Source: Thermoplasmata archaeon UBA184
GTDB taxonomy: Archaea; Thermoplasmatota; Thermoplasmata; Lutacidiplasmatales; UBA184
Direction of reading: 5' to 3'
Assembly: GCA_002495185.1 (NCBI GenBank)
Contig: DAEB01000040.1
Location: 29,184-93,183 of the forward strand
DNA length: 64,000 nucleotides
The position numbers and the translations under genes were made by a program. The notes beneath the pieces are model-generated. The model ran no database searches, was not told where the DNA came from, and worked only from the letters and a program-made list of their open reading frames with translations. Positions 12,201-27,335 of this stretch are shown one piece after another (the stretch's first letter is position 1; each line of letters begins with the position of its first letter).

Positions 12201-12321
12201 CTCCCCAAGAGCCGCCCAGGGCCATCAGGACCGTTCCAATGACCACTCCGAGGGCCACCGACGCGGTGACCTTCCACGTCCGTCGAGATTCCGCGCGAAG
12301 CCGGGGGGTGGGCATAGGCAC
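9247..12321 (-). CDS. large surface protein (1024 aa): signal/TM, ~450-aa N-terminal domain (possibly thermopsin-like peptidase A5), six tandem PKD/Ig-like repeats, C-terminal TM anchor
   Basis: N-terminus MPMPTPRLRAESRRTWKVTASVALGVVIGTVLMALGG. Repeats of ~85 aa each contain Y.W..LP.GC....T...C.P...G (e.g. YQYQWSNLPAGCSSANATSLSCVPSNASAGVAKLTVVD). C-terminus WYVVLGVAVAGAIGAVVVATRRVRRQ. Extremely rich in N-x-S/T. The antisense ORFs 8321..10573 and 10705..11910 were rejected. Confidence 0.7.
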   Translation of the reverse strand: MPMPTPRLRAESRRTWKVTASVALGVVIGTVLMALGGSWGEPHPASTTPPSVPVPTPHGAPGSRPIAFPPVHVHRIGLPAPAKVSPTGGYGSEPAPMGIGDFGVGQGGNPYTYSTSEFLGNFSWQNMNIQESGDTYFSDQLNVVLQFVQSGVTYAYWIQDVAFMDSSSKNLQFENNIWNMTTSSSCLDNTAVTGNGTVYPISGCVGYYAVGATTQPGANENMPTPGDFGVLVKSYMSGSGTPEVAFEYWDGVTNYYVTYDNVVWPWATATSADNNFVVDGFNYNPGGWFYDAELAIGGPGGGSSTAAANPTHLTSSLEYWNGHNFEATPSVWNFGANTAETVSNIQSIFSHDPAGLPLTLQLNGTTRNATPAQAYSQNQVGEIAITATGIPSGTVAIPGSVWRFTNDAATLTLVPGLYHVWVNSTSSHTDLGECLVAAGSTTSVTVSEGCTPAVSKPAPTQGTVDLGQSVSFESTLLSPGSGGDTYTWQTSPSGLGCGVSTTLTLLCTPTNTGTYKVNLTVTDSSSRSFTSANLSFTVHADPTVGVPSPSRSTVETGAPVTFTVSPTGGASPYSFSWSGLPAPCNRTNTAAPTCTPPAPGTYPVQVNITDASSFFVPSPTLSFVVSGGPSVTTPSVTPAPSIDLGEAATFTVKVSGGSGGYAYLWEGLPSGCTPVSSASLTCTPSATGNSSVQVQVNDSAGGVGTSGTVSFAVHSDPSLGSLTALPKTVDLGQTLRFATSGPTTGGVGPYQYQWSNLPAGCSSANATSLSCVPSNASAGVAKLTVVDANHGTSFTTTSYHVYNDPSLLGISPVPASIDLGENVTFIAAGLSGGTGVFTYQWSGLPVGCLGANSSSVKCTPTASGTRNASVTITDSNGLPVQGSVGFTVYPALSVTGPASSSSSGVVGTLVSFSVTTLGGRGPLGFAWSGLPTGCTSSNDSMVECTPSASGTFYVMVNVTDANGVTVESGTLSFRVAPAPTTLLGLPLTDWYVVLGVAVAGAIGAVVVATRRVRRQSSEPPPGLA

Positions 12322-12405
12322 GCTTCTCTGGGTTGCGCTGACCCTGCCTATAATGGTTGAGTCCTGCCGAGAGGAAGTTGCGGTCGGCCGGGCGTCGCGC
12401 GTCGG

Positions 12406-13230
12406 CTACGGAAGCGGGAGGGGCGACGTGGAACCCGAGTAGCTTTCGGTTCCGAACACCGTGAACGTGAGCCCGAGCCCGGTCGGGTTCGACGGGCCCA
12501 TGTCGATGAGGATGACGTCGATGGAGGTGAGCGGATACGTGGCGGCGATCCCGGGGCCGTACACGAGCCAGCCCGTCGCCATCGACAGCTGGTTCCCCAT
12601 CTGGGTCGAGTTGCTCTGGGCCTCCACGTTGCCGATGACACCGATCACCGAGAATCCCCCGGAGCCGGTCAGGATCGGGTACTGCCCGCCGGCGGCGGTC
12701 CGCACGGAGAAGAGGACGTCTCCGAAATCCGCCGAGGACGCTTCGATGGTGATGGAGTAGGTGTAATCACCGCCGTTGCAGCCGTTCGAGACGAAGGTGT
12801 ACCCCGTCGCGCAGTTCCCGGCCACCGGGTTGCCCACGGCGAAAGCGCTCCCGATCGGGAGGAGGGACGACGTGAAGGTGATGTTGACCCAGCTTTGCAG
12901 GTAGAGAGTGGTCACGATGCCCGAGGGCGGGGACGCCGTGTAGTTCTGCACCGGTAGCACCGTGAAATTGTACGTCCCCCCATTGACCGAGAACGAGATC
13001 GAATCGCTCGCGCCCTGGACGGTTGATGTCTCCGTCACGCCGTTGAGGGTGACCCCCCAGAGCACGCCCGGAGCAAGGCCGGTTTCTCCGAACACGACCG
13101 TGTCGCCTCCCCCCGGGGTGGAATTCAGTACGAAAAAGCCCCACAGGGCCACTCCGGCGGCGATGATCCCGATGACCAGGAAGACGACGGTGAGGGACTT
13201 GAGGGACGTGGCGGCCCGGGGCCGGCGCAT
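12406..13230 (-). CDS. secreted/membrane-anchored protein, paralog B of the CATG..NGC..LDMG family
   Basis: N-terminal MRRPRAATSLKSLTVVFLVIGIIAAGVALWGFFVL. C-terminal GNCATGYTFVSNGCNGGDYTYSITI...GGFSVIGV...IDVILIDMGPSNPTGLGLTF...PLPLP aligns residue-for-residue with the C-terminus of ORF 6783..8096. Confidence 0.6.
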   Translation of the reverse strand: MRRPRAATSLKSLTVVFLVIGIIAAGVALWGFFVLNSTPGGGDTVVFGETGLAPGVLWGVTLNGVTETSTVQGASDSISFSVNGGTYNFTVLPVQNYTASPPSGIVTTLYLQSWVNITFTSSLLPIGSAFAVGNPVAGNCATGYTFVSNGCNGGDYTYSITIEASSADFGDVLFSVRTAAGGQYPILTGSGGFSVIGVIGNVEAQSNSTQMGNQLSMATGWLVYGPGIAATYPLTSIDVILIDMGPSNPTGLGLTFTVFGTESYSGSTSPLPLP

Positions 13231-13372: not shown

Positions 13373-15679
13373 CTAGGGCTGCAGCGCCACCGTGACAACG
13401 CTCAGGGAGATCCATCCGATCGAGCGTCCGTTCTGGAGCGCGAGGAATCCTCGCAGCTCGACCGTCGGGTATGGGTAGGCGATGTGGAGGGGAAAGCTCA
13501 GTGAAGTCCATTGGGCGGGCGATAACTCCGACGCGTTCACGGGGACCCGGAAGAAGGTGGAGACGTTCTGGCTCCCCAACCACGTGGAGTCCAGGTAGGC
13601 GATAGGACCCGGCGGAGAGGAGGAGTTGGCGGTACCCCCCTTCACGCTGAACGTCGCGACGTAGTCGCCCGGAAGGAACGTCGCGTACGGGCCGTACCAG
13701 ATACCGGCCTCTACGTCCGCGAGGGGCCCTGTCGCAACTGAGGCGATGACAGTCCCCGTCAGACTGGTCGGGTCCGACACGACCCGCCCGGAGGGTCCCA
13801 GGCTGAGGTGGGAGGCGGTGTACTCGTACACCGTCGGAGGCGGTTGGACCTCCCGCACCTGAGGAACGCCCTGGTATCCAAGTTCGAAGAGGTAGATCGT
13901 CCCCGGAAACGAGTTCGAATAGATGTACGCGACCAGGCCGTAGACGGAGCTGTTGAACAGGTCGCTCTGAAGGAAGGCCGGGACGATCAGGAACTCTGAA
14001 GCGTCCGCGAGCACGAAGCGGGGGAGGTTGTTCGGCGAGAACGGGAAGTCCGGCACGGGATTCTGGGCGTTGATCACGAACCAGGGAAGTGGCCAGGCGT
14101 TCGGGTCGTTCGCAACGTAGGGGAACAGCCGGTCGGAGGCCAGGACCTGGCCGTTCGAGGGAATGTAGGAAACGATCCACGGCATCGATGAGGAGGCCGG
14201 ATTCACGGTGTATCGAAACTCATACCCCGGAAGGGGGGTCGCGCCGAAGTTGGCGGTGTTGAACGGCGACATCGCCCCGTCCAACACGAGAATCGCAACG
14301 ACCGTCCCGAGGACGACCCCCGGGACCGCGAACCGGCTCGTCCGACCGGGCAGCGTCCAACGCCGCGGGGCCGGGCGCTCGGTCCGGACACGGCGGAGAA
14401 GAACCACGAGGATGCTCGCGACGAGAAGCAGGCCCGCGGGAACCCAGAAGTACGGTCCGGCGGTGTACCGCAGCAGGCGCGTCGAGCCTCCGGGAACCAG
14501 AGCGAGCGCCATCAGGAATCCGGAGCCGGCCAGCAGCGGCAGGACGAGCAGGAACGAGCGGACCTCCGTCCAATCCAGTCGCTCGAGCTCCCTCAGGCCG
14601 AACACCGCCCCGATCGTGAGCGGGGGGACGGCGATGAGCGCCTGCGAACCGCCGAAGTACGCGGAGAATCCCGGCGCGACGAACACCGAGTAGAGGAACC
14701 ACGGCAGCGAGAGGATCAGGTATCGAGGGGCCAGGATCGGGAGGAACCCGAGGGTGGCGAGCAACAGCAACCAGTACCCGAAGGAATGGGGCAGGGTCGC
14801 CGCATTGGCACCGTAGCCGAAGATGAGCGACAGGCCGCCCGGTCCACCGGCCGTGACGGGGGCCACTCCCAGAACCGCCGGGACCAGCACGTACTGGATG
14901 GCTCGAACGGCGAAGTAGGCGACCCCGGCGAGGACGAGGAAGGCGAGCATGATCCTCACCGGACGGTCCTTCAGCATCGCTCGCCAGGAGAACCGGAGCA
15001 GCTGCCCCCGTTCCACGAGGACCAGAAGGACCACCGCAACGGCGAGGAAGGGGAACACTTCGAGAGTCATCGTTCCCATGACGAACGGCACCAGCGAGAG
15101 CGAGTAGCGTCCCCGCGACACCAGAACGAAGAACGAGAGAATCTCCACGGGGAGGAACGACTCCCAGTGAAAATCGTACATCAATCCGGCCAGGATCGCG
15201 AACGACACGAAGTAGAGGAGGAGGATCGACCCCACCAGCTCGACCCGCCGAAGCGACCCGCGAGCCAGATAGTAGAGCGGGATACCCGAGGCCGCAAAGA
15301 CCGTCGACTGCACCGCGAAGAGCGTGAGCGGGACGGGCCACGCCGCGTACAGCGGCACGACGAGCGCCGCGACGTACGTGCTGTGGACCTGTAGGAAGGA
15401 GTGCACGCCGTAGAACGAGCGGTCCGGGGTCTCGTAGAAGAGCTGGCCGTGGGCCGTCGTCCACAGAAGCTGTTGGTTCACGCCGAGGTCCCAAGCGCTG
15501 GTGAAGAAGTTCTCGTTGCGGAGGTTCGAGAAGTAGGCGATCACGACCGCGTAGGCGGCCAATAGGACCCCGAGGACGAGCCATCCCCGGTAGGGGCCGC
15601 GCAGGAGAGCGACAAGGCCCCGGGTCCTGGTTTCTTCGCGGTTCGGTGTGGGGGGCTGCTCGCTCGGACTCGCTGACAA
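13373..15679 (-). CDS. large polytopic membrane protein (768 aa), GT-C-like/DUF2079-like candidate glycosyltransferase with ~350-aa extracytoplasmic C-terminal domain; paralog of 19792..22260
   Basis: ~12 predicted TM helices. First extracytoplasmic loop FTSAWDLGVNQQLLWTTAHG carries the conserved acidic residue, as in GT-C enzymes. LTLFAVQSTVFAASGIPLYYLARG and the C-terminal blocks (DRLFPYVANDPNAW, SVYGLVAYIYSNSFPGTIYLFELGY, IWYGPYATFLPGDY) are conserved in the paralog. Confidence 0.7.
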   Translation of the reverse strand: MSASPSEQPPTPNREETRTRGLVALLRGPYRGWLVLGVLLAAYAVVIAYFSNLRNENFFTSAWDLGVNQQLLWTTAHGQLFYETPDRSFYGVHSFLQVHSTYVAALVVPLYAAWPVPLTLFAVQSTVFAASGIPLYYLARGSLRRVELVGSILLLYFVSFAILAGLMYDFHWESFLPVEILSFFVLVSRGRYSLSLVPFVMGTMTLEVFPFLAVAVVLLVLVERGQLLRFSWRAMLKDRPVRIMLAFLVLAGVAYFAVRAIQYVLVPAVLGVAPVTAGGPGGLSLIFGYGANAATLPHSFGYWLLLLATLGFLPILAPRYLILSLPWFLYSVFVAPGFSAYFGGSQALIAVPPLTIGAVFGLRELERLDWTEVRSFLLVLPLLAGSGFLMALALVPGGSTRLLRYTAGPYFWVPAGLLLVASILVVLLRRVRTERPAPRRWTLPGRTSRFAVPGVVLGTVVAILVLDGAMSPFNTANFGATPLPGYEFRYTVNPASSSMPWIVSYIPSNGQVLASDRLFPYVANDPNAWPLPWFVINAQNPVPDFPFSPNNLPRFVLADASEFLIVPAFLQSDLFNSSVYGLVAYIYSNSFPGTIYLFELGYQGVPQVREVQPPPTVYEYTASHLSLGPSGRVVSDPTSLTGTVIASVATGPLADVEAGIWYGPYATFLPGDYVATFSVKGGTANSSSPPGPIAYLDSTWLGSQNVSTFFRVPVNASELSPAQWTSLSFPLHIAYPYPTVELRGFLALQNGRSIGWISLSVVTVALQP

Positions 15680-15831
15680 CCCGTTACTCCCCTACTGCAC
15701 TCTGGGAACAGTCTGTTGGGCCCGGGCCGACCGACCGGGAGCCCATCACACAGTCTCCCCCAAGAACTTTGCCCGGGAGAGGCCGCCTCACCGGAAACGT
15801 CGGTGCCAAGAAGGCGGCGCCCCGGAGGTCT

Positions 15832-16923
15832 TCACAAATCCCGGAACGCCCGCTCGACCGACTCTCGGAACGCGGCGGGCGAAAACCTCTCCCCGCGCCG
15901 AAGGGACCGTTCGGCAGCCGCCTGGTAGGCCGCCGGCCCGCTGAGGCTCGCGAGCGCCGCGAGCCACGGCCCGGTGTCGGTAGGCTCGAACAATGACCCG
16001 GAATCACCGACGATCTCGGCGAGCGGAGCGATGTTGCTGGCGAGCACCGGCAGGCCGAACGCCATGGCCTCGATCACCGGGCGTCCGAACCCTTCATGCA
16101 GGGAAGGATGCACGAGGACGTCGTTCGTCTCGTACACCTGGTCGATGGAGGCAACCTCCGAGATGGTGGTGAGATTGGGGAGGTTCATCTGCGACACGAG
16201 GGCCCGAGTCTTCGACCGCAGGCGCGACAGGATAGTGAACTGAATCCGGTCGGCGTCCTTCCCTCGTGCCGAGTCCTGCGCGAGTCGGACTACGAACTCG
16301 AGGTTCTTGTAGGGGCGGTCGGTCGACACGCAGAGGACGCGGACCTTCCCCGTGGCTCGAATCCGCTCGAGGGACGCGGAGACGTGTTCCGGGTGGAAAC
16401 CGAGCGAGTGCGTTTCGGGAACGACCCGGACCTGTTCTGGCGATACCCCCTGCTGCGTGACCTCCGTGGCCATCGACTCCGTCGGCACGAAGACTCTTTG
16501 CGCCAACCGCAGGCGGGGAATCGCGTAATGAAACATCCAGGTCGATGCGCGACGGTCGGCGAACCGGGTCAGCGGCTTCAGGTCGTGCACCCGAATGGCG
16601 CACCGAGGGTGGAAGCGAGCGGCGTTGACCAGCGTGGGGTCCATCAGGAACACGATATCGCTGGGGATCCGTCGGAGTCGATCGGGGAACGTCCAGAGGC
16701 GGTTGATCCCCATGTCGACCGTCTGATTGGGGAATCCCAGGCCCCGCACGACGTGGTCGGGGTTCGATAGAGGGGATTGCACGCCTCGATCCAGGCACTG
16801 GTACCAGGAGACCCCGTACCCCAGCTCCGTGAGGGCGGTCCGGAAGGCGAGGCCGTCCAGGCTGATCCCGTCGGTCTTCCCGGAGGCGTTCACGATGGCG
16901 ATCGTCGGGGTGGGGGGTCGCAT
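15832..16923 (-). CDS. GT4-family glycosyltransferase
   Basis: C-terminal HEGFGRPVIEAMAFGLPVLASNIAPLAEIVGDSGSLF is the GT4 E-x7-E nucleotide-sugar-binding motif. Start may be at 16956 (longer ORF) or 16923 (MRPPTP). Confidence 0.8.
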   Translation of the reverse strand: MRPPTPTIAIVNASGKTDGISLDGLAFRTALTELGYGVSWYQCLDRGVQSPLSNPDHVVRGLGFPNQTVDMGINRLWTFPDRLRRIPSDIVFLMDPTLVNAARFHPRCAIRVHDLKPLTRFADRRASTWMFHYAIPRLRLAQRVFVPTESMATEVTQQGVSPEQVRVVPETHSLGFHPEHVSASLERIRATGKVRVLCVSTDRPYKNLEFVVRLAQDSARGKDADRIQFTILSRLRSKTRALVSQMNLPNLTTISEVASIDQVYETNDVLVHPSLHEGFGRPVIEAMAFGLPVLASNIAPLAEIVGDSGSLFEPTDTGPWLAALASLSGPAAYQAAAERSLRRGERFSPAAFRESVERAFRDL

Positions 16924-17210
16924 GGCTTCTGGATCCGCGCGCCGTTCAGAGCGCACGAGTTCTAGACAGGTAGGGTGGCGGCCTCACTTTAGGAGTCGGG
17001 GTCGATTCGACGACGGCGGGTGTGCGTCCGCCTCAGTAGGGGGCGCCGGACTCCTCCGCATGGCGCAGAACCTCGTCCTCCCGCACCCCGGGTTCCCCGA
17101 CAGAGCTCTGGTTTAAGCCGTCGCAGTCCTCGTCTCGGCGTTGCCGCAGTACCAAAGATTAATTACCACTGCACGGGCGTTCTCGAGAGAGGACCGGGGT
17201 TGGGATCACG

Positions 17211-18428
17211 ATGAAACGACTCCTCCTCGTCACCGACCCGATCGGCGGGTCGACGTCGGTCCAGTTTGAGATCCTCAGTTCGCTGACGACGGGCCTTCGA
17301 CCCCGCTACGAGCTCTTCGTCTTCACGCCCTACTGCGACGAGGAACGTTCGGCCGCCCTGAGCCAGCTCGGCTGCCAGCTGATCACCCCCCGGTCTTCCG
17401 GCCTCAGCTTCGAGTCCTTCATCCCCGCGGACGGCCGGCGGAACGAGTCGATGCTCTGGGCGACCAGCTGGGTGCGCGAAGCGCTGTTCGCTCGGAACAG
17501 CTCGGACGCCGCTGCGTGCCTGAGGACGCATCCGGTGGACTACACGGTCAACCTCTCCATGACCGTGCCGGCGCATTGTGACCTCTGGTGGATCCTCGGA
17601 ACCCCCCTCGACCAGACCATCCGGGGGATGGCGGGGTTCAACCTGGTCGCACGTCTCGTCGATGCCGCCTCCCATCGTTTGGTCGCTTCGTTGGACGAGA
17701 GGGTGTTGCGCCGGATCCAGTCCCAATCCGTCCGATTCCTGGCGAACTCTCCGTACCTCCAGAGCCTCTACCGAGACCGGGGCTTCCCGGTGGAGGGGGT
17801 CGTCTACACCCTGAAGGACCTCTCGGGATTCCATCCCACGTCGCCGCATCCGACCCGGGATTACGTCCTCCTCTACGTCGGAAAGGAGCTCGACAACCTC
17901 GACTTCCCGGCCCTCGTCCGCGCGGGGGTTCGGATCGTGGGATTCGGGAACAAGGTTCCCGCTGGCACGCAGCTGAAGAAGTTCACCGAATCGATCGAGT
18001 GGCTGGGGCCCGTGAGCCAGAGCGAGCTCATCGACCTCTACGCGAACGCGCTCTTCACCCTGTTCCCCTTCACGTGCGAGCCGATGGGGCTCGTTCCCAT
18101 CGAGTCGATGGCGTGCGGCACCCCGGTCCTCACCTATGCCCGCCAGGGTCCGGGGTCGACGGTCCTCCCGGGCTCCACCGGTTGGCTCGTCGACACCCCC
18201 GACCAGATGCTCGCCAAAGCGAAGGAGATCTGGTCGCGCCGGGATTCCGGCATCTCCCCCGCCGGGTGCATTCGTCGGGCTCGGGAGTTCATCGGCCAGC
18301 GGATGGTGGATGAGCTGGTCGATTGGATCGAGGGGATGTGCGCGTTGGACGGGTCGAACGCCCCCCTCGACCGCGCCCGCCGGGAACTGACGCCGGGCGC
18401 GAAGCCGATGCTGATGGGCCGGGCGTAG
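17211..18428 (+). CDS. GT4-family glycosyltransferase
   Basis: FPFTCEPMGLVPIESMACGTPVLTYARQGPGSTVLPGSTGWLVD is a GT1/GT4 C-terminal domain. The antisense ORF 17163..18629 was rejected as a GC artefact. Confidence 0.75.
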   Translation: MKRLLLVTDPIGGSTSVQFEILSSLTTGLRPRYELFVFTPYCDEERSAALSQLGCQLITPRSSGLSFESFIPADGRRNESMLWATSWVREALFARNSSDAAACLRTHPVDYTVNLSMTVPAHCDLWWILGTPLDQTIRGMAGFNLVARLVDAASHRLVASLDERVLRRIQSQSVRFLANSPYLQSLYRDRGFPVEGVVYTLKDLSGFHPTSPHPTRDYVLLYVGKELDNLDFPALVRAGVRIVGFGNKVPAGTQLKKFTESIEWLGPVSQSELIDLYANALFTLFPFTCEPMGLVPIESMACGTPVLTYARQGPGSTVLPGSTGWLVDTPDQMLAKAKEIWSRRDSGISPAGCIRRAREFIGQRMVDELVDWIEGMCALDGSNAPLDRARRELTPGAKPMLMGRA

Positions 18429-18444
18429 GATCCGGCGCTGCCGG

Positions 18445-19485
18445 CTAGTCCACGCGGATCTGCTTTCGATAGGCCGCGCGACCGATGGAGGGAGCGACGA
18501 GGCAGAGAATCCCGGCGAGAATCGTCGGGAGGCTCTCCCGGACCGGGTACGTGTCCCGGTAGCGGAGGAGTCCGCGAAGCGGTGCCGCGAAGTCTCGCCG
18601 TCTCGAAGCAGGGTCTCGGCAGGCTTCAATCAACTGTACGAGAAGCAGCCGTGCGTCCATGAGGCGGAGGACCTGCGCGTTCCCCGAGCTCGCCACGAAC
18701 TCGCGGATGACGCGGTAATCCCTCTCCGCGAGCTGCGCGAACTCCAGCATCTTCTTCGACCTCGCCTCGGCCAGGCCGGAACCGGCGAGGGACGTGTTGT
18801 CTTCGTGGATCCGGTAGCGCGTCAGGAGCGCGTCGTCCAGGAGGACCGAGTACTCGGATACCAGAGCGGAGAAGAAGAACAGGGTATCGACCGTCGCGAT
18901 GAGACGCTTCAGGTAGGGGAGCGAACGCTCGACGAGTTCGCGACGGACCGCGCTCGAGCTGACGTTGAAGTCCGGGTGGCGAAAGGCGAGCTGGCGCAAG
19001 GATTCCGCGGTCTTCGAGGATGCGAGGAACAGGGTGCCTTTGGAGCGGGAGGGCCCCGACCCGAAACGAGGCACCGAGCGAAGGTCGAGGAACTCCCCCT
19101 TCGGGCCGATGAAGCTCGCCCGGTTCCCGTAGAATCCGAGGTCGCCCCGAGAATCGAAGTACGCCGCGATCGTTCGGAGGCGCGAGGGCTCGAAGAGGTC
19201 GTCGTCGTCCAGCACGAGGAGGATTCGGCCTCGACTTCGAGCCACCCCGGCGGCGACCTTGAGCGCCCCCGGCTGTTCGGTGCAAATGATCGACGTGGCG
19301 CCCACCTCCCGGAAGTACGATTCGAGGGCCGCGTCCTCGTAATTCTTGACGACCACGACCTCGAACTTCGACCGGTCCAGGTCCTGGCGAACGACGCTCT
19401 CCACCGCACCTCGGAGATACTGGACCCGGTTGTGAGCGAGCACGATCACCGAGATCTGGGGGTCGCCGTTCGTTGGCCCGGTCAA
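18445..19485 (-). CDS. GT2-family glycosyltransferase (paralog 1 of 3)
   Basis: ISVIVLAHNRVQYLRGAVESVVRQ...FEVVVVKNYED...ILLVLDDDDLFEP is a GT-A fold with the DxD motif. ~45% identical over its length to ORF 22285..23325. Confidence 0.8.
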   Translation of the reverse strand: MTGPTNGDPQISVIVLAHNRVQYLRGAVESVVRQDLDRSKFEVVVVKNYEDAALESYFREVGATSIICTEQPGALKVAAGVARSRGRILLVLDDDDLFEPSRLRTIAAYFDSRGDLGFYGNRASFIGPKGEFLDLRSVPRFGSGPSRSKGTLFLASSKTAESLRQLAFRHPDFNVSSSAVRRELVERSLPYLKRLIATVDTLFFFSALVSEYSVLLDDALLTRYRIHEDNTSLAGSGLAEARSKKMLEFAQLAERDYRVIREFVASSGNAQVLRLMDARLLLVQLIEACRDPASRRRDFAAPLRGLLRYRDTYPVRESLPTILAGILCLVAPSIGRAAYRKQIRVD

Positions 19486-19791
19486 TGGTCGTCCCCCTCC
19501 AAAGGCTCCCGAGCAGGCCCGGGGTCCTGGTTCGGCCTCCCCTCACTATAACCGTCGCGGTCCCACACAAAACCACGGGGAACGGACAGCGGGCGGGCGA
19601 TCCGATGGATTCACGGCTCTCCACCAACGAGCGGCGGTGGACGAAGGCACCGACCGGACCGGCGCGGCGGAATCCCGTTCGGTACCCGCGGGGCGACCGA
19701 CCGTCTCCAAGAGGGTTCTTATAACCCCGGAACTCGCTGGCAGAACGGGCTGACTTCCGGTGGGTTCACAATCCGGTGGTGGTCGCCGGCT

Positions 19792-22260
19792 GTGGAGACA
19801 AAGAGTGGCACCGATCTCAACGGTGGGCTGCCCGAGCGGAGGAGGGTCGATGAGCCCTGGTCGCCGGCTCGAGCCACTCGACCCGAGCCACCAACGACCC
19901 CGGGACCCCGAGGGATGGTAGGGATGAATCCCCCGCCGGATTCGTCCCAGGAGACCGAGAAAGGTCGAGCGACCGACTCGGAGACAGGCGAGCGCGTCGC
20001 GGGCCTCCTTCCACGGCCCGAGGGTCTCCTGCTGCTCCTCGTCGTCACGGCCTTCTCCCTGCTGTACACGGGGCTCAGCTTCCTTCGATACACCGAATTC
20101 TACGCCGAGAACTGGGACCTCGGAATCAACATGCAGGCGGCGTGGACGAACGACCACGGCTACTTCGCCTTCAGTTCTGCTCTCTCCGAAGGCGTCCGGG
20201 CGCAATCGTTCTACTTCATCCACCCGGCCTACCTGATGTACCCCGTTTCTTGGGTCTACAACCTGGCGCCCTACGCGCTCACGCTGTTCGCGATCCAGGC
20301 GGTGGTCCTGGCCTCGTCGGCGATTCCCCTCTACCTCCTGGGTCGACAGGCGGCCGTGCCCCCGAAGATCGCGTTCGCGGGGATCGCGATCTACCTCGCC
20401 TCTCTCCCCATCCTCTCCGGATTCCTGTTCGACTACCACTGGGAGGCGTTCATTCCCGCGTCGTTCCTTTGGACCTTCTACCTGTGGGGGAAGGGCCGCT
20501 ACTGGTGGGCCGCGCTCCCGGCGACGCTCGGTCTCTTCACGATCGAGGTGTTCGCCGCACTCCTTCTCGCGATCGCCGCATACTTTGCCTGGCCCTACAT
20601 TCGCGCCCTCTTCACGCCTCCGAGGAAGCACTGGGACCAGGTCCGGAGGACCCTCGCCGGTCCGGCACGACCTCTCCTCGGCCTCGTCGCGCTGGCCATC
20701 GTAGGATTCCTCGGGCCCGTCTTCGTGGCGTGGTACTGGCTTCCCTCACTGACCGGCGCGACCCCGGTGTTCCCGCCGCCTCCCCCACACAACATCATCG
20801 GCATTCCGTACTGGGGCGTCTCCGCTTCGAACCTCGGACCTCGCCTGTTCTACTGGCTCATCCTTCTCTCGTCGTTCGGGTTCCTTCCCCTCCTTCACCG
20901 GCAGAGGCTGCTGATCCTGAGCATTCCGTGGGTCCTCTACTCGGTGGTGATGACCCCCAACCCCGCGTTCACTCTGATCCGGTATCACTACTCGTTGATC
21001 GCCGTGGCTCCGCTCGCGATCGGATTCTTGGAAGGATTGGGTGCGATGACCCGCTCATCCGACCGCGAGTCGGTCGCGGGGCTGCCGTTCTGGGGCTGGC
21101 TGGTCCTCCTCGTGCCCGTCTTCGTGGTCGGAGTGATCGCACCTCTCACGTTGATTCGACCGACGACCACGGACCTCTGGGTCGGCCTCGGGATCGCTCT
21201 CTGGGTGCTGGTCGGCTTCTTGGCGATGCGATTCGTCGCGCGCCGGAGGGCATCGACCCCCCCTCGAGACCCCCGCGGAACGGGGCCCGGCCCGGCGAGG
21301 CGTCGCACCGCTCTCCGGGTGACGCTCATCGTCTCCCTCGTCGTGCTGGTCTCGAGCAATATCGCGCTCTCCCCGCTGAATCCGGCGACGTTCCTCGGCC
21401 CGGGGGAGGCGAGCTACTCGTTCACCTACTCGCCGAGTCCGAGCTTCGACCAGATGCCCGGGCTCCTCTCCCACATTCCCTCCGGAGCTTCGGTCTTCGC
21501 ATCGGACAACCTCTTCCCGTTCGTCGCCAACAACCCGCGGGCGTACTCCACGTTCTGGTATCCGGGTCCGATCCCCTATCTTCCGTTCAACGCGTCGAAT
21601 CTGCCGGAGGTCGTCCTCCTGAGCTCGACGCAATGGTTCCTCCCAACGTTCCTGAACGGGGTGCTGTTCAACCAGAGCGTCTACGGGCTCGTCTACGTCA
21701 TCTATGGGAACCAATACCCCGGGTCGATCTTCCTCTACGAACTGGGGTATTCCGGTTCGAGCCACGTGGTCGAGGCAACACCATTTCCGGCGACGACCGT
21801 CCTCTGCGGCAATGATCTTGCGATCGGTCCGTCGGGCTCGGTCGCTCCGCTGTCGGGATCCCGATGCGGGAGCATCATCGAGAGCCGCCCGGCCACGAAC
21901 CTTTCGGGGAACAACGCCACGATCTGGTACGGGCCGTACTCGGACCTGCTCCCGGGCAACTACACCGTCAAGATCTCCCTTCGGGGGGAGTTGAGCGGCC
22001 CCGGGCCGGCCAACTCCGCCGTGCTGGTCATGAACGCCAACGCGGCGGGGGTGCCCTACTGGTACGACGTGGTGGTCTACGAGAATCAGATCTCCCCGAC
22101 GCAGTGGACCAACCTGACGTTCCATTTCTCGCTCGGCGCCCCCCGACCGCTCGCCGAGTGGCGAGGCTACCTCGCCGGTGCGACCGTCAGCGGGACGTTC
22201 GTCCCGGGAAGCTGCCAGCTGAACTACATCGAGGTCGACTACACGTCCGGACCGTACTGA
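19792..22260 (+). CDS. large polytopic membrane protein (822 aa), GT-C-like/DUF2079-like; paralog of 13373..15679
   Basis: FYAENWDLGINMQAAWTNDHG, LTLFAIQAVVLASSAIPLYLLGRQAA, DNLFPFVANNPRAY, SVYGLVYVIYGNQYPGSIFLYELGY and IWYGPYSDLLPGNY are all collinear with the paralog. The start is uncertain (an in-frame Met at 19915 is also possible). The antisense ORFs 19546..20631 and 21055..22125 were rejected. Confidence 0.7.
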   Translation: METKSGTDLNGGLPERRRVDEPWSPARATRPEPPTTPGPRGMVGMNPPPDSSQETEKGRATDSETGERVAGLLPRPEGLLLLLVVTAFSLLYTGLSFLRYTEFYAENWDLGINMQAAWTNDHGYFAFSSALSEGVRAQSFYFIHPAYLMYPVSWVYNLAPYALTLFAIQAVVLASSAIPLYLLGRQAAVPPKIAFAGIAIYLASLPILSGFLFDYHWEAFIPASFLWTFYLWGKGRYWWAALPATLGLFTIEVFAALLLAIAAYFAWPYIRALFTPPRKHWDQVRRTLAGPARPLLGLVALAIVGFLGPVFVAWYWLPSLTGATPVFPPPPPHNIIGIPYWGVSASNLGPRLFYWLILLSSFGFLPLLHRQRLLILSIPWVLYSVVMTPNPAFTLIRYHYSLIAVAPLAIGFLEGLGAMTRSSDRESVAGLPFWGWLVLLVPVFVVGVIAPLTLIRPTTTDLWVGLGIALWVLVGFLAMRFVARRRASTPPRDPRGTGPGPARRRTALRVTLIVSLVVLVSSNIALSPLNPATFLGPGEASYSFTYSPSPSFDQMPGLLSHIPSGASVFASDNLFPFVANNPRAYSTFWYPGPIPYLPFNASNLPEVVLLSSTQWFLPTFLNGVLFNQSVYGLVYVIYGNQYPGSIFLYELGYSGSSHVVEATPFPATTVLCGNDLAIGPSGSVAPLSGSRCGSIIESRPATNLSGNNATIWYGPYSDLLPGNYTVKISLRGELSGPGPANSAVLVMNANAAGVPYWYDVVVYENQISPTQWTNLTFHFSLGAPRPLAEWRGYLAGATVSGTFVPGSCQLNYIEVDYTSGPY

Positions 22261-22284
22261 GCGGCGACCCGCCTCCCACGGTGA

Positions 22285-23325
22285 CTAGCCCCTCTCCGAG
22301 CGTTCCACCTCCCGGGCGTACAGCCATCGACCGAACCCGGGGGCGACGGTGAAGAGCCAGAGAGCGCGTCGCAATCGCGTCTCGGACCGCACGAAGTATG
22401 TCCGCTTCTGGCGAGCGAGGTCTCGACGCAGACGGGCGAACTCCTCCCTCGGCGTGGTCGGTTCTCGAAGGGCCTGGTACGCTCGTTGCACGGCGAGAAC
22501 GCCGTCGGCCTCCTCCGTTGCGCTCCGGTCGCCCGTGGCGCGCACGGCCTCCGCCAGCCTCGCGTAGCTCGGAAGGAAGAGCTTCGAGAATCCGGCGCGG
22601 CCCGCCAGCGGGGAAACGCCGGTCCGGACGTCGAGCGAGATGTTGCGGGGGTGGATCCGATACTCGGTCAGAACCTCGGGCTCGATACACAGGTCGAGCG
22701 GTGACGTGAGCGCCGCAAAGAACACCAGCCCGTCGAGCAGGCGGTAGCCGGCCAGGTCCATCCCCCGGACGAACGGGGTGACGACCTCCTTGCGGACCGC
22801 CATACTGCTGCTGTTGAAATCGATGCCGAGATCCGGAAGCTGGCGGAGCTGCTCCACTCGGCCGGGGCCCGAGAGCACGATTCTTCCCGAGCGGACCGAG
22901 TTCCTTCGCTGGCGGGCGCGGAACTCGCTGTTCGGCAACTCGTTCCCGGCCGCATCGATGACCGCGTAGTTGTTCCGGCAGAACCCGATCCTCTCGCTCG
23001 ACCGAAAGAGCGTTGCGAGAGCGCGAAGCCGCTCGGGACGGTATCGATCGTCGTCGTCCAGAAACGTGAGGACCGTCCCTCGGCTTGCCTCGACCCCCGC
23101 GCGAATGGCCGGCCCGATATCGCCGGGGTCCACCGGAACCGACCGTCCGTTGAGGGCCTGGACGGCCCGCTCGAGCGGTTCGCTCTCATAATCGCGGACC
23201 ACGACGAGCTCGAACTCGGATGGGTCCAGGGTTTGCCGACGCACCGATTCGACCGCTTCGAGAACGTAGTCCGGATGGCGAGATGCCATCACGATGACGC
23301 TGATGTACGGGTCGGTCGGGGTCAT
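22285..23325 (-). CDS. GT2-family glycosyltransferase (paralog 2 of 3)
   Basis: ISVIVMASRHPDYVLEAVESVRRQ...FELVVVRDYES...TVLTFLDDDDRYRPERL. Collinear with 18445..19485 and 38750..39781. Confidence 0.8.
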   Translation of the reverse strand: MTPTDPYISVIVMASRHPDYVLEAVESVRRQTLDPSEFELVVVRDYESEPLERAVQALNGRSVPVDPGDIGPAIRAGVEASRGTVLTFLDDDDRYRPERLRALATLFRSSERIGFCRNNYAVIDAAGNELPNSEFRARQRRNSVRSGRIVLSGPGRVEQLRQLPDLGIDFNSSSMAVRKEVVTPFVRGMDLAGYRLLDGLVFFAALTSPLDLCIEPEVLTEYRIHPRNISLDVRTGVSPLAGRAGFSKLFLPSYARLAEAVRATGDRSATEEADGVLAVQRAYQALREPTTPREEFARLRRDLARQKRTYFVRSETRLRRALWLFTVAPGFGRWLYAREVERSERG

Positions 23326-23448: not shown

Positions 23449-24522
23449 CTACAGCCGGAGCCGGCACGCGTCGCCGACCAGAAGCTCGATCTCCTCCGGC
23501 ACCGGTGCGACCGCCCGGAGGTCGACGTACCGGCCGATCAGGGAGTCTCGCAACCGGACGGGTCCCGAGATTCGAGCTCCTTCGAGGACGATGCTTCGAC
23601 GGATCGCGCACCCGTTCAACTGGACCCCGTCTCCGATCGACGTTCGGGGGCCGATCTCGGTCCGGCTGCCGACCCGAACGTCACGCCCGATCACCACCGG
23701 CCCGTGAACCGATGCCCCCGATTCGATCACCGAATCCTCTCCGAGCGCGACCGGGCCCTTCAACGTGGCCCCCGACTCCACGGTTCCGAGGACTTCGAAC
23801 TCCGCCCCGGGGCGTGAATCGAGCACGAGGTCGTTCGCATGAAGGAGGTCTTCGGGCGCGCCCGTGTCCTTCCACCAACCGTGAACTCGCTGGACCACCA
23901 CGCGGTCGCCCCGCTCGACGAGCGCTCGGATCGCGTCGGTGATCTCGAGCTCTCCTCGTGCGGAGGGCGCGAGACGGGCGATCACGTCGTGGACCTTCGG
24001 GGAGAAGACGTACACCCCCACGAGGGCCTGGTTCCCCTTCGGGTTGCGGGGCTTCTCCTCGATCGACACGATCTTCTTTCCCGAGAATTCGACGATCCCG
24101 TACTGGTGGGGGTCGGCGACCGTCGTCACCCCGATCACGGCGTCCGCACGCTCGCTCTCGAAGAGCTGGAGGAACGACTCGAGGCCATGCTCGAGCAGGT
24201 TGTCGCCGAGGTACATCACGAACGGCTCTTCCGCGAGGAACGAGCGGGCACAGAGGACGGCGTGGGCCAACCCCTTCGGTTGACCCTGGTTGATGTACGT
24301 GACCTCGAGCCCGAACGCGGCACCGTCCCCCACTGCCTCTCGAATCCCTTCGTGGATCGGACCCAGCACGATCCCGACCTCGGAGACCCCGGCGCGCGCG
24401 AGCTGCCGGAGCCCGTAGAAGAGGATCGGCTGGTTCGCGATAGGGATCATGTGCTTGTTCCCGGTCGAGGTCAGCGGGCGAAGGCGCGTTCCGTGGCCGC
24501 CGGCGAGGAGAAGCCCTTTCAT
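23449..24522 (-). CDS. rmlA: glucose-1-phosphate thymidylyltransferase, long form with C-terminal left-handed beta-helix domain
   Basis: MKGLLLAGGHGTRLRPLTSTGNKHMIPIANQPILFYGLRQL is the G-x-G-T-R-L nucleotidyltransferase signature. Hexapeptide repeats lie in the C-terminal third. Start set at the internal Met (24522); the 484-aa ORF in the track has a spurious N-terminal extension. Confidence 0.85.
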   Translation of the reverse strand: MKGLLLAGGHGTRLRPLTSTGNKHMIPIANQPILFYGLRQLARAGVSEVGIVLGPIHEGIREAVGDGAAFGLEVTYINQGQPKGLAHAVLCARSFLAEEPFVMYLGDNLLEHGLESFLQLFESERADAVIGVTTVADPHQYGIVEFSGKKIVSIEEKPRNPKGNQALVGVYVFSPKVHDVIARLAPSARGELEITDAIRALVERGDRVVVQRVHGWWKDTGAPEDLLHANDLVLDSRPGAEFEVLGTVESGATLKGPVALGEDSVIESGASVHGPVVIGRDVRVGSRTEIGPRTSIGDGVQLNGCAIRRSIVLEGARISGPVRLRDSLIGRYVDLRAVAPVPEEIELLVGDACRLRL

Positions 24523-24742
24523 GGACCCATCTCCGGAGGCAAGACCCCTTCTAAGCGTTCGCCAAGACGGCCCGCGCCTGCTTGTCCCCCGGCCCCCGAC
24601 GGACCCGCGGTCCGCCTCGGTCGGAGCGTGGGAATCGTTTTTACGGCGAAGCGCGACATGGGGCCTCGTAGGCGGCTGTGAAGGAAGTTCCTGTCCCGGT
24701 CCGGGACCCCGATGACACCCCGATCTTCGCCCGAAGGGGTCG

Positions 24743-26071: not shown

Positions 26072-26133
26072 ATCACCCACCGGGCCGGTGGCCCACGAAC
26101 GCCCTTATCTGCGGCAGGGACCTTTGAGCGAGG

Positions 26134-27255
26134 ATGGGCCACCGCAGGTCGAAGAAGCCGGTGCTACCGGTGACCCTCCCGAGCCTTCCGCCGTTCGAAG
26201 AGTACACCGAGCTCCTTCGGGAAGTCTGGGATACCCATTGGCTGACGAACCAGGGGCCGCTCGCCGACCGTCTGGAGGCGGGCCTCCGGCGGTACCTGCC
26301 GTCCCCGCACGTCGACGCGGTGACGAACGGCACGCTGGCCCTTCAACTGAGCTACCGAGCGGTCTTTCCCCGCAAGGGAGTGGTGATCACCACCCCCTTC
26401 ACGTTCGCGGCGACGACGACATCTCTCGTCTGGGAGGGCTACACGCCACGGTTCGTCGACATCGACCCGGTCACTTTCAACCTGGACCCGGCTCTCGTCG
26501 ACGCCGCCCTCCGCGACGATGTGGTGGGGATCGTCGCGGTCCATGTCTTTGGGAACCCGGCGGGCGGCCCCGCGCTGTCGCGGCTCGCGGCCTCACGGAA
26601 CGTGAAGCTGGTGTTCGATGCGGCTCACGCCTTCGGGGTCCGGACCCGCCCCGTCCCCCTCTGGTCGCTGGGGAACGCCTCGACGTTGAGCTTCCACGCC
26701 ACGAAGAGCTTCCACTCCTTTGAGGGCGGCGCGGTCGTCACCTCCGAGGCGAACGTCTCGCGCCGGGTGCGCCGTCTTCGGAACTTTGGGCTCCGGGGCC
26801 CGGAAGAGGTCGTGGAGGCGGGCATCAACGCGAAGTTGAACGAAGCTCAGGCCGCGATGGGCCTTCTCAACCTCCGATACATCGATGGCTGGATCCGCCT
26901 CCGCAAGGAACGCTACGACCGGTACCGCTCCGAACTCGAGGGGACGGGCGGGGTCCAGTTCCAGGAGCTGGCAAAGTGCCGCTACAACTACACGTACATG
27001 CCGATCCTTCTGCCGACGAAGAGGCTTCGGGACCGCGTCGCCCGCGATCTGGAACGCTCCGGAGTCCGCCCGCGCAAGTACTTCTTTCCCCCGACGCACG
27101 TCGCGCCGTATCTCCGTGGGTCGAGGAGAGCGTCCTGCCCGGTCGCGGAGAGCGTCTCCTCCCGTGTCCTCTGCCTGCCGCTCCACCCTGCCCTTGGGGT
27201 TTCGGACGTCCGCCGCATCTCGGCGATCGTGCGGACGGTCGTTCAGGGTCGATAG
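26134..27255 (+). CDS. DegT/DnrJ/EryC1/StrS-family PLP-dependent sugar aminotransferase
   Basis: LSFHATKSFHSFEGGAVV (PLP-lysine region) and the N-terminal LP..LPPFEEY...W...WLTNQGPL are typical of nucleotide-sugar aminotransferases. Confidence 0.85.
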   Translation: MGHRRSKKPVLPVTLPSLPPFEEYTELLREVWDTHWLTNQGPLADRLEAGLRRYLPSPHVDAVTNGTLALQLSYRAVFPRKGVVITTPFTFAATTTSLVWEGYTPRFVDIDPVTFNLDPALVDAALRDDVVGIVAVHVFGNPAGGPALSRLAASRNVKLVFDAAHAFGVRTRPVPLWSLGNASTLSFHATKSFHSFEGGAVVTSEANVSRRVRRLRNFGLRGPEEVVEAGINAKLNEAQAAMGLLNLRYIDGWIRLRKERYDRYRSELEGTGGVQFQELAKCRYNYTYMPILLPTKRLRDRVARDLERSGVRPRKYFFPPTHVAPYLRGSRRASCPVAESVSSRVLCLPLHPALGVSDVRRISAIVRTVVQGR

Positions 27256-27335
27256 CCCTCGGAGCTCCCGTGCGGACGCGGGCGGCTCGAGACTTTACTA
27301 ACACCGGTGTCTGTGGCCCGGTCAGGTAGGCAACG

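Follow-up and report, generated by a model that had tools for sequence, protein, structure and literature searches.

A glycan gene cluster of an uncultured Thermoplasmata archaeon with two paralogous DUF2079 membrane proteins of predicted GT-C fold

The DNA analysed here, a stretch of 64,000 nt from an uncultured Thermoplasmata archaeon (the window), encodes two paralogous polytopic proteins of the DUF2079 family, DUF2079_A and DUF2079_B, with a predicted GT-C fold. On balance, they are likely to be outside-acting, Dol-P-sugar-dependent GT-C transferases that decorate an exported surface glycan, as suggested by paralogy, family membership, predicted fold, residue conservation and synteny. The locus provides the family with a well-supported predicted fold, candidate catalytic residues and a conserved neighbourhood in which two GT4 genes and a GT2 of a particular subfamily accompany genes for dTDP-amino sugars, which together make DUF2079 experimentally approachable.

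Gene order, paralogy and synteny

The genes are arranged in the order DUF2079_A(-), GT4_1(-), GT4_2(+), GT2_A(-), DUF2079_B(+), GT2_B(-) (Table 1), with strands alternating across the six-gene block and no direct tandem. GT2_A adjoins DUF2079_B in divergent orientation, 438 bp from the likely start of the latter (M45, at 19924), which yields the 778-aa form present in the database. GT2_B is convergent with DUF2079_B across a gap of 24 bp, while GT2_A and DUF2079_A are not neighbours. The sequence-only reading of this DNA described tandem duplicated modules with each large protein beside a GT2 gene and two GT4 genes in between. The GT4 pair was confirmed by Pfam as GT4/GT-B enzymes and DUF2079_B is indeed flanked by GT2_A and GT2_B, but DUF2079_A does not lie beside GT2_A, and the tandem arrangement was not upheld, the genes alternating strands and the duplication being old.

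DUF2079_A and DUF2079_B share 33% identity over ~750 aa in a collinear alignment (E 6e-105). Both translations contain all the motifs from which paralogy had been proposed: WDLG[VI]N.Q..WT..HG, LTLFA[VI]Q...IPLY, D[NR]LFP[FY]VAN[ND]P, SVYGLV...PG[ST]I[FY]L[FY]ELGY and IWYGPY..LPG[ND]Y. Membership in DUF2079, formerly only suggested, is now clear: both proteins match PF09852 far above the gathering cut-off of 28.2 bits (109.4 and 113.6 bits; E 3.1e-31 for DUF2079_A), over profile positions 1-336 of 459, and the domain is carried by 30 of 30 close homologs. The family comprises 5,921 representative clusters at E <= 1e-3. In agreement with its earlier description as functionally uncharacterised, the literature searched contained no paper on DUF2079 and no mention of its function or biochemistry.

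The duplication is ancient; clades A and B of the DUF2079 tree are both still represented in five or more Thermoplasmata MAGs. In relatives, clade-A genes are always located beside GT4 genes and are flanked by orthologs of GT4_1 and likewise of GT4_2 (56-66% identity), whereas clade-B genes usually have a GT2_B ortholog nearby. Of the 15 tabulated loci, 10 have a GT2 gene of the GT2_A/B subfamily no more than a few kb from a DUF2079 gene, and in loci L017 and L026 the two are directly adjacent; where a genome has both DUF2079 paralogs, the sequenced stretch often contains just one such GT2. The envisaged pairing of GT2 genes with the large proteins is thus conserved in part, being usual for clade B, whereas clade A tracks GT4 genes. 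Two to three DUF2079 paralogs recur within one glycan cluster in relatives. ALG3/9/12 and Emb/Aft/Mpt are sets of stepwise GT-C enzymes, which these recurrent paralog sets resemble by analogy.

Beyond GT2_B lie genes for nucleotide-sugar synthesis. In the listed RmlA ORF, the first 128 aa are an N-terminal extension and probably untranslated. The presence of ATP-grasp, aminotransferase and dehydratase genes (24743..28310) predicts the formation of a dTDP-4-amino-4,6-dideoxyhexose derivative.

Table 1. Features of the window discussed in the text
Feature	Coordinates	Strand	Description	Evidence
DUF2079_A	13373..15679	-	768-aa polytopic protein, predicted GT-C fold, clade A	ORF, PF09852, paralogy, tree
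GT4_1	15832..16956	-	Cytoplasmic GT-B family 4 glycosyltransferase	Pfam Glycos_transf_1 + Glyco_transf_4, synteny
GT4_2	17211..18428	+	Second GT-B family 4 glycosyltransferase	Pfam, synteny
GT2_A	18445..19485	-	346-aa GT-A glycosyltransferase	PF00535, PDB, NCBIfam, hydropathy
DUF2079_B	19792..22260	+	822-aa ORF, predicted GT-C fold, clade B	PF09852, homologs, AF2 model
DUF2079_B membrane domain	20014..21369	+	Residues 31-482 of 778-aa form, 13 TM predicted, N-in	
DUF2079_B extracellular alpha/beta domain	21370..21780	+	Residues 483-619, predicted	LFPFVAN and YGL...PG.I.L.ELGY motifs
DUF2079_B C-terminal CBM-like beta-sandwich	21781..22257	+	Residues ~620-778, predicted	IWYGPY..LPGNY motif
GT2_B	22285..23325	-	346-aa GT-A glycosyltransferase	PF00535, profile and structure comparison
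RmlA	23449..24903	-	Glucose-1-phosphate thymidylyltransferase, long form	TIGR01208 396.9 bits (cut-off 320), Pfam
ATP-grasp ligase	24743..26071	+		Pfam/NCBIfam
Aminotransferase	26134..27255	+	DegT/DesI-like	Pfam/NCBIfam
dTDP-glucose 4,6-dehydratase	27336..28310	+		TIGR01181 430 bits (cut-off 365)
Sulfatase-family protein	28399..29934	+	No signal peptide or TM segment	
GT2_C	38750..39781	+	Third paralog of GT2_A/B subfamily, low-GC island	PF00535, GC profile
Orphan giant polytopic protein	39681..43091	+	Database form from 39834, 1085 aa	
GT2_D	48249..49145	-	ArnC/DPMS/AglJ-like GT2	PDB and NCBIfam searches

Predicted fold, topology and candidate active site

A model of DUF2079_B obtained with AlphaFold (AF2; pLDDT 83, pTM 0.81) was compared with known structures by two methods, the second being Foldseek. 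Its membrane part matches solely GT-C enzymes (PglB, STT3, ArnT, ALG9/12 and PMT), as do all membrane-protein matches listed by both methods, and ALG9/12, ArnT and PMT score level with PglB. The Foldseek matches comprise STT3A/B, ArnT, ALG12/9 and CBM4/6. The model thus supports assignment of DUF2079_A/B to the GT-C fold. Sequence similarity to solved GT-C enzymes is not detectable in a PDB profile search (best E 0.76), neither large protein matches the STT3 Pfam domain, and both lack the strings W.D[YFW]G and WWD that would indicate a WWDYG-type motif.

The helices of the AF2 model, the hydropathy and the K/R content of alternate loops of DUF2079_B suggest 13 TM helices, a cytoplasmic N-terminus and an outside C-terminal domain; it is the alternation of K/R-rich loops that places the conserved acidic and His residues, together with the C-terminal domain, outside. 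GT-C enzymes have 11-13 TM helices and a cytoplasmic N-terminus, and their conserved motifs lie in the outer (luminal) loops, the first of which bears an acidic residue (PMC6801728). The GT-C layout with an outside C-terminal domain, proposed earlier from the sequence, accords with both the model and the predicted topology. In structure comparison, the last domain of DUF2079_B resembles carbohydrate-binding modules; the alpha/beta domain preceding it is also present in shorter family members of 570-590 aa. All six N-x-S/T sequons of DUF2079_B are located from residue 556 on, four of them in the C-terminal beta-sandwich, and for the two large proteins together 10 of 10 sequons lie in the C-terminal domains (P ~7e-5).

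Conservation was scored over 171 DUF2079 family representatives, with the numbering of the 778-aa DUF2079_B. The first-loop Asp to which the sequence-only reading had drawn attention corresponds to D65, located directly after TM1 and kept in 169 of the 171 (99%). Similarly conserved are Q71 and H172 (99% each), D170 and E208 (94% each) and E174 (93%). The predicted outer loops hold D65, Q71, H78, H100, D170, H172, E174 and E208, with D170-x-H172-x-E174 between TM3 and TM4. The putative catalytic counterparts in DUF2079_A are D64 and D169-x-H171-x-E173. GT-C enzymes use positions at the start of EL1 and in EL2 (PMC6801728).

The GT2 enzymes and a candidate Dol-P-sugar synthase

GT2_A and GT2_B, both PF00535 members, are paralogs as had been supposed, and align from end to end at 36% identity (E 2e-48). 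Against the PDB, the GT2 profile matches PglI (7.7e-16), followed by chondroitin synthase, TarS/TarP and SpsA, with DPMS reached at 1.2e-3 only and GtrB and ArnC missing from the matches. The NCBIfam matches of the pair are EpsD, WcaA, TuaG, PglI and AglG; for GT2_A, the best PDB match is PglI and the NCBIfam matches are EpsD, HpsN and WcaA. Both sequence and fold group these enzymes with the glycan-extending PglI, TarS/TarP and WcaA, while DPMS, ArnC and GtrB rank far lower. These matches do not support the assignment of GT2_A/B as AglD/DPM1-type Dol-P-sugar synthases, nor the earlier proposal that they charge Dol-P like AglD; GT2_A/B are probably not the makers of the DUF2079 sugar donors. 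The subfamily has an invariant D91-D92 inside a DDD motif; the DxD motif is common to all GT2 enzymes and thus does not discriminate a synthase subfamily.

The GT2 model contains a soluble-looking six-helix C-terminal region (residues 238-344), which in GT2_A ends in a weakly hydrophobic helix. Hydropathy analysis revealed no clear transmembrane helix in these GT2s; a weakly hydrophobic terminal segment (KD 1.6-1.7) is present in GT2_A and GT2_C and, at the same threshold, absent from the C-terminus of GT2_B. A conserved trait of the GT2_A/B subfamily is a terminal hydrophobic/aromatic helix in which Pro, Arg and Tyr are conserved. PglI, TarS/TarP and WcaA, the best sequence and fold matches of GT2_A, GT2_B and GT2_C, are DxD GT-A enzymes, and enzymes of this type attach sugars at the cytoplasmic side, either to polymers or to glycans carried on a lipid. 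Unlike them, GT2_A/B/C carry the six-helix region, specific to this Thermoplasmata/archaeal subfamily, and are recurrently positioned beside giant membrane proteins.

GT2_C (32% identity to GT2_B, E 1e-28) immediately precedes the gene of another giant membrane protein, with ~10 hydrophobic segments and, after them, a large domain bearing 25 N-x-S/T sequons; similarity of this orphan to DUF2079 is not detectable. The juxtaposition of a GT2 of this subfamily and a giant membrane protein occurs three times in the window and again in the distant locus L026, a recurrence poorly explained by a pure precursor-building role.

The only GT2 in the window resembling polyprenyl-phosphate sugar synthases is GT2_D, matched to ArnC (1.6e-12) and DPMS (4.7e-8) in the PDB and to ArnC, Dol-P hexose transferase and AglJ in NCBIfam. 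These matches make it a candidate Dol-P-sugar synthase, and it serves as an internal control, showing that the searches applied to GT2_A/B do recognise the synthase type. It is located ~26 kb off in a low-GC island and may belong to another pathway.

Proposed function, alternatives and known systems

DUF2079_A/B would receive a sugar from a dolichyl-phosphate-linked donor at the outer face of the membrane, in an outer-loop active site possibly built from Asp65, D170-x-H172-x-E174 and E208, and transfer it onto a glycan that has already been exported (N-glycan, lipoglycan or polysaccharide) and that the CBM-like domain could hold. From the fold, we infer a lipid-linked donor, since known, characterised GT-C enzymes all use one (PMC6801728; PMC8476585). 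What distinguishes the two paralogs may be the sugar, the linkage or the acceptor position. The GT4 and GT2 enzymes encoded nearby would be cytoplasmic and nucleotide-sugar-dependent, building or decorating the lipid-linked precursor, with an amino-dideoxyhexose probably supplied by the adjacent dTDP-sugar genes. The Dol-P-monosaccharide could be made by another ArnC/DPMS-like GT2, either GT2_D or one encoded outside the window.

It is rather unlikely that GT2_A/B are divergent Dol-P-sugar synthases (AglD/DPM1/GtrB-like), each charging Dol-P for the neighbouring DUF2079 protein within a duplicated two- or three-component glycosylation module. Pairs of GT2 and GT-C enzymes are the rule in the GtrB/GtrV, CsbB/YfhO, ArnC/ArnT and Ppm1/Mpt systems, and the proximity of subfamily GT2 genes to DUF2079 genes, the position of GT2_C and the conserved terminal helix, suggestive of membrane association, are consistent with such modules. 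The PglI-type ranking in PDB and NCBIfam searches, the recognition of GT2_D by these same searches and the lack of a clear transmembrane helix argue against them, as do the single subfamily GT2 in many two-paralog genomes and the linkage of clade A to GT4. An oligosaccharyltransferase, ligase or polymerase moving a whole Dol-P(P)-glycan to protein, lipid or chain is unlikely as well. Its attractions are the tightest conserved neighbours, cytoplasmic GT4 and GT2 enzymes, the presence of PglB/STT3 among the best structural matches, the 13-TM N-in/C-out topology shared with STT3 (PMC6801728), and a window in which AglB and any Wzy or ligase gene were not seen; a polymerase, too, could make use of a CBM-like domain. 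However, STT3 Pfam and WWDYG-type matches are lacking, monosaccharide transferases score as well as PglB, two to three paralogs per cluster are easier to reconcile with stepwise transferases than with one terminal ligase or polymerase, and the CBM-like domain points to a glycan rather than a peptide acceptor. Very improbable are non-enzymatic roles as transporters, flippases or scaffolds sharing the GT-C helical-bundle architecture: the listed membrane-protein matches are all GT-C, Pfam and NCBIfam give no transporter-family match in either protein, and the near-invariant Asp/His/Glu cluster occupies outer-loop GT-C positions (PMC6801728).

In their predicted topology and conserved residues, the DUF2079 proteins share with ArnT, PMT and ALG9/ALG12 an odd number of TM helices, a cytoplasmic N-terminus, an Asp directly after TM1, further acidic and His residues in outer loops and location in a glycan cluster, but differ in their motif set (WDLG...Q...HG; DxHWE; TxE) and in a tail composed of alpha/beta and CBM-like domains. 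PglB/AglB/STT3 are top or near-top structural matches with the same 13-TM N-in/C-out layout and a large outside C-terminal domain, which in DUF2079 is CBM-like and not the STT3 peptide-binding domain. The mycobacterial EmbA/B/C and AftD are GT-C arabinosyltransferases with CBM-like extracytoplasmic domains, paralogs acting in one pathway, and cytoplasmic GT4 enzymes act earlier in the PIM/LM/LAM route. DUF2079 would resemble them in the succession of a GT-C membrane domain and an outside CBM-like beta-sandwich, in having several paralogs in one pathway and in its GT4 neighbours. The likeness to the Dol-P-mannose synthase AglD, the flippase helper AglR and the outside mannosyltransferase AglS (HVO_1526) is one of concept, drawn by pathway logic alone, AglS being presumably ArnT/PMT_2-like and not DUF2079. 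In Haloferax volcanii, a separate Dol-P-sugar carrier provides the last sugar, which joins the already transferred glycan outside the cell (PMC3871713). Unlike in that system, the adjacent GT2s lack AglD/AglJ-type resemblance. Among the window ORFs tested with Pfam there is no flippase, AglB, AglR/Wzx-like or GtrA-like gene; a small flippase of the GtrA type could be encoded elsewhere in the genome.

A more speculative and doubtful extension is that DUF2079 is a distinct, hitherto unassigned GT-C family whose paralog sets in soil Thermoplasmata cooperate with the invariably linked GT4 pair to assemble, on a membrane lipid, a lipoglycan or polysaccharide outside the cell. Archaea would then have their own version of the mycobacterial route of PimA/PimB' (GT4) and Mpt/Emb/Aft (GT-C with CBM), and the GT2 subfamily found alongside would represent a new partner class for giant outside-acting membrane enzymes. 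The Thermoplasmata envelope depends on glycoproteins and lipoglycans, and the locus points to outside-acting glycan-decorating enzymes in this group. It overturns no concept; bacteria and eukaryotes already offer examples of GT-C enzymes that act outside, form paralog sets and carry CBM-like domains.

The sulfatase-family gene located beyond the dTDP-sugar genes has parallels in relatives, where genes of this family also adjoin DUF2079 genes.

Paralogous genes and family membership

The ORFs of the flagged region, all with GC3 support (see the table), encode two large polytopic proteins (DUF_A and DUF_B), two GT2 glycosyltransferases (GT2_A and GT2_B) and two GT-B glycosyltransferases of family 4 (GT4_1 and GT4_2). 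DUF_A can be aligned with DUF_B along the whole length (33% identity, E 6e-105), GT2_A and GT2_B are 36% identical (E 2e-48), and every motif quoted in the sequence-only reading is found in the DUF_A and DUF_B translations. As both paralogies align and all motifs are present, the observation is real and far beyond chance. That reading described tandem modules of a GT2 and a large protein: the two paralog pairs stand, but the strands alternate, so that there is no head-to-tail tandem, and the neighbour of GT2_A is DUF_B rather than DUF_A.

Features of the glycan clusters and other genes of the window
Feature	Position	Strand	Length and remarks
Hydrophobic protein	639..1895	-	418 aa
AbiEi/AbiEii pair	3425..5154	+
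Surface protein block	6783..13230
Acidic proteins	6783..8096, 8318..9208, 12406..13230
Thermopsin-family protease	9247..12321	-
DUF_A	13373..15679	-	768 aa
GT4_1	15832..16956	-	374 aa
GT4_2	17211..18428	+	405 aa
GT2_A	18445..19485	-	346 aa
DUF_B	19792..22260	+	822 aa; database form 778 aa, start M45 (19924)
GT2_B	22285..23325	-	346 aa
RmlA ORF	23449..24903	-
ATP-grasp ORF	24743..26071	+
FG-GAP protein	35787..38237	-	816 aa
Low-GC island	38750..49145
GT2_C (island)
Orphan giant membrane protein (island)	39681..43091	+	1136 aa; database form 1085 aa, start 39834
GT4 (island)	43027..44259	-
SAM methyltransferase (island)	44465..45319
GT4 (island)	45358..46485
Sulfatase-family gene (island)	46562..48085
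GT2_D (island)	48249..49145	-	298 aa

Pfam family DUF2079 (PF09852) matches DUF_A and DUF_B over their first ~390 residues (109 and 114 bits), far above its cut-off of 28.2 bits, so the initial guess of a DUF2079-like family was correct; no NCBIfam model matches either protein. PF09852 is present in all close homologs (34-63% identity), the few named ones being labelled "Thermoplasmata archaeon." The family profile led to 17 genome loci, all of them from Thermoplasmata MAGs except one, which is from a complete "uncultured archaeon" genome. In an exhaustive profile search the family reached 5,921 representative clusters (E <= 1e-3), of which 387 pass E <= 1e-30; the full architecture of 750-800 aa is common to some tens of family clusters, and other members, 570-590 aa long, end after the first extracellular domain. 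The literature searched contained no functional information on DUF2079, PF09852, IPR018650 or COG3463. Mycobacterial Rv3779 and YkoS of B. subtilis are no more than suspected members.

Predicted fold, topology and candidate active site

It is comparison of predicted folds alone that ties DUF2079 to the GT-C glycosyltransferases. Sequence searches of all PDB chains gave nothing meaningful, either with a single protein (best E 0.57) or with a 30-sequence profile (best E 0.76). The AlphaFold2 model of DUF_B, built from a 30-sequence alignment (mean pLDDT 83, pTM 0.81), comprises a helical membrane domain (residues 31-482 of the 778-aa form), an alpha/beta domain (~483-619) and an all-beta domain (~620-778). 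A Foldseek search with this model, used as an independent method, matched STT3A/B, ArnT, ALG12, ALG9 and CBM4/CBM6, with moderate scores for a query that is itself a prediction. The GT-C assignment is supported by the agreement of two fold methods and by the fact that all membrane-protein matches shown are GT-C enzymes.

Topology was deduced from the model helices, hydropathy and the spread of Lys and Arg among the loops. Loops rich in these residues (132-146, 190-192, 231-248, 325-328 and an Arg-rich stretch at ~440-462) alternate with Lys/Arg-poor ones, which together with the helices and hydropathy indicates 13 transmembrane helices, an N terminus inside and C-terminal domains outside. The same topology has been reported for STT3 and DPY19 (PMC6801728). 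All N-x-S/T sequons, six in DUF_B and four in DUF_A, fall within the C-terminal domains (probability ~7e-5 under a uniform expectation), consistent with an exposed and glycosylated C-terminal domain.

Across 171 aligned representatives the polar residues with the strongest conservation, all placed in the predicted outer loops, are D65, Q71 and H172 (99% each), H78, H100, D170 and E208 (94% each), E174 (93%) and Q355/Y356 (93-94%). D65 is the first-loop Asp whose conservation had been proposed as a check. In PglB and ArnT, an Asp directly after TM1 and acidic residues clustered between TM3 and TM4 make up the GT-C arrangement. By analogy, D65 with D170/H172/E174 (D64 and D169/H171/E173 in DUF_A) shows the layout that GT-C enzymes use and is a candidate active site, in line with the general rule for conserved outer-loop motifs of GT-C enzymes (PMC6801728). 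The suggested resemblance of the large proteins to the GT-C superfamily thus holds for predicted fold, topology and loop motifs.

Neighbouring glycosyltransferases and age of the duplication

The GT2 genes had been taken for Dol-P-sugar synthases of the AglD type, and this part of the sequence-only reading fails in the searches made. PglI is an Und-PP-heptasaccharide glucosyltransferase, and it was the best PDB match of both GT2_A and GT2_B in single-sequence searches, ahead of TarS for both and then of SpsA for GT2_B and a Leptospira GT2 for GT2_A. A 23-sequence GT2 profile likewise matched PglI (7.7e-16), followed by chondroitin synthase, TarS/TarP, SpsA and heparosan synthase; DPMS appeared only at 1.2e-3, and ArnC and GtrB were absent. 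Weak NCBIfam matches were to EpsD, HpsN, WcaA, TuaG, PglI and AglG. A clear transmembrane helix is missing from both proteins, which have just a conserved terminal helix of weak hydrophobicity. By sequence similarity, neither groups with the polyprenyl-phosphate sugar synthases. GT2_D, a separate GT2 serving as internal control, matched ArnC (1.6e-12) and DPMS (4.7e-8) in the PDB, and ArnC, haloarchaeal Dol-P hexose transferase and AglJ in NCBIfam; it has no predicted transmembrane helix. The window therefore does contain a synthase-type GT2, a different gene from GT2_A and GT2_B, and GT2_D is the only candidate Dol-P-sugar synthase there. Orthologs of GT2_D also occur near a distant DUF2079 gene in two other loci (L021 and L023).

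Two DUF2079 clades emerge in neighbour-joining trees of the ORFs from the relatives' loci retrieved. Clade A, with DUF_A, has orthologs from L004, L005, L006, L007, L015, L016, L017 and L018; clade B, with DUF_B, has orthologs from L001, L005, L006, L007, L008, L011 and L018, with L009/L010 as sister. A recent tandem duplication was ruled out, as both clades hold orthologs from at least five MAGs, and since both copies are kept in one cluster in at least five assemblies, the duplication is older than the divergence of those assemblies.

Every clade-A gene is immediately adjoined by at least one GT4, most commonly in the order GT4_2 - DUF_A - GT4_1 or GT4_2 - GT4_1 - DUF_A. For clade-B genes, an ortholog of GT2_B (46-63% identity) is usually present within 1-4 kb, often with a sulfatase-family or FkbM-type methyltransferase gene in between. 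In L017 a GT2_A ortholog adjoins the clade-A gene convergently, the layout of DUF_B/GT2_B in the window, which makes an ancestral convergent DUF2079/GT2 pair plausible. Where a genome has both DUF2079 paralogs, its sequenced stretch often contains just one A/B-subfamily GT2, and strict co-phylogeny of the GT2 and DUF2079 clades was found in the trees to be partial only. A one-to-one pairing of GT2 and large protein is kept only in part across relatives: clade B usually has the GT2 nearby, and clade A goes with GT4. Among more distant family members, the contig L025 (ena:ERZ27257133 k141_2218252) carries three nearly consecutive DUF2079 paralogs at 4431..11743 (716, 702 and 585 aa) accompanied by two GT2 and one GT4, indicating that several copies per cluster recur in the family. 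L026, another contig with a more distant DUF2079, has an A/B-subfamily GT2 just upstream.

Proposed mechanism and accompanying genes

Every GT-C enzyme characterised so far draws on a lipid-linked donor (PMC6801728, PMC8476585), and given the predicted GT-C fold, DUF_A and DUF_B would act as glycosyltransferases at the membrane's outer face with dolichyl-phosphate-linked donors. They would add single sugars stepwise to a glycan acceptor; the CBM-like terminal domain and the two to three paralogs per cluster argue for this rather than for en-bloc transfer to protein. Such stepwise addition is carried out by ALG3/9/12 and mycobacterial Emb/Aft/Mpt. The most likely role of the neighbouring GT4 and GT2 is cytoplasmic assembly or decoration of the lipid-linked precursor. 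That DUF_A and DUF_B are GT-C-fold enzymes acting outside is likely; the mechanism as a whole, with Dol-P-dependent stepwise transfer outside and GT4/GT2 precursor builders inside, is somewhat favoured.

A GT2 synthase working with a DUF2079 transferase is unlikely in view of the PglI-type matches. It is kept alive by the recurrence of the A/B-type GT2 subfamily beside giant membrane proteins, including the unrelated orphan protein of the low-GC island, which is the main point that stepwise transfer with cytoplasmic precursor builders leaves unexplained. A role of DUF2079 as oligosaccharyl-transferase, ligase or polymerase is more doubtful still: DUF_A and DUF_B differ from STT3/AglB, with no such Pfam match and no WWDYG motif. 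A non-enzymatic role appears very improbable beside these enzymatic ones.

In working principle the locus is like the mycobacterial GT4 + GT-C lipoglycan route, the ArnC/ArnT and GtrB/GtrV systems and the Haloferax AglD/AglR/AglS step (PMC3871713). Its new features are a CBM-like domain, a set of candidate catalytic residues, an ancient pair of paralogs and a GT4/GT2 neighbourhood that is conserved in Thermoplasmata. The GT-C clan in Pfam presumably already includes DUF2079, in which case assigning this fold would be no novelty in itself.

The window cluster also encodes RmlA and dTDP-glucose 4,6-dehydratase, each above its NCBIfam cut-off, a DesI-like aminotransferase, an ATP-grasp ligase, epimerases and a cytoplasmic sulfatase-family protein; these genes suggest a glycan in which a 4-amino-4,6-dideoxyhexose is present in modified form. 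Among the window ORFs tested there was no gene for a flippase, AglB or a GtrA-type protein. The sulfatase-family neighbours were rejected as LtaS/EptA-like outside transferases: they are without transmembrane helix or signal peptide and match arylsulfatase/choline-sulfatase models. The RmlA ORF has a 128-aa N-terminal extension before its nucleotidyltransferase domain and runs into the start of the ATP-grasp ORF, which diverges from it; the true starts of both are probably more internal.

The G+C content of the window is 65-70%, save for an island at ~38-50 kb (52-57% against ~66% elsewhere) that contains a second glycan cluster and was probably acquired horizontally. Its orphan polytopic protein, encoded directly after GT2_C (the third paralog of the A/B subfamily), has ~10 hydrophobic segments followed by a ~600-aa domain with 25 N-x-S/T sequons. 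A diverged DUF2079 was rejected (hhalign probability 0.4%), Pfam gave no match even at E <= 1, and the only homolog among 5.8 billion proteins is distant (26% identity). This protein, too, may be a glycan enzyme that acts outside the cell.

Beside the first cluster lies a group of probable surface proteins. It includes a thermopsin-family protease with PKD domains and three acidic proteins (pI ~4.1-4.3), each of which has a single hydrophobic segment at the N terminus and matches no Pfam family. These may be substrates for glycosylation, and none of them is conserved beside DUF2079 in relatives. A protein encoded near the start of the window has ~8 hydrophobic segments and matches no Pfam family (best E 0.07). 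An AbiEi antitoxin/AbiEii nucleotidyltransferase toxin pair (type IV TA/abortive infection) is located upstream of the cluster, and a gene between the two glycan clusters encodes a protein in which FG-GAP repeats occur nine times (E 1e-86).
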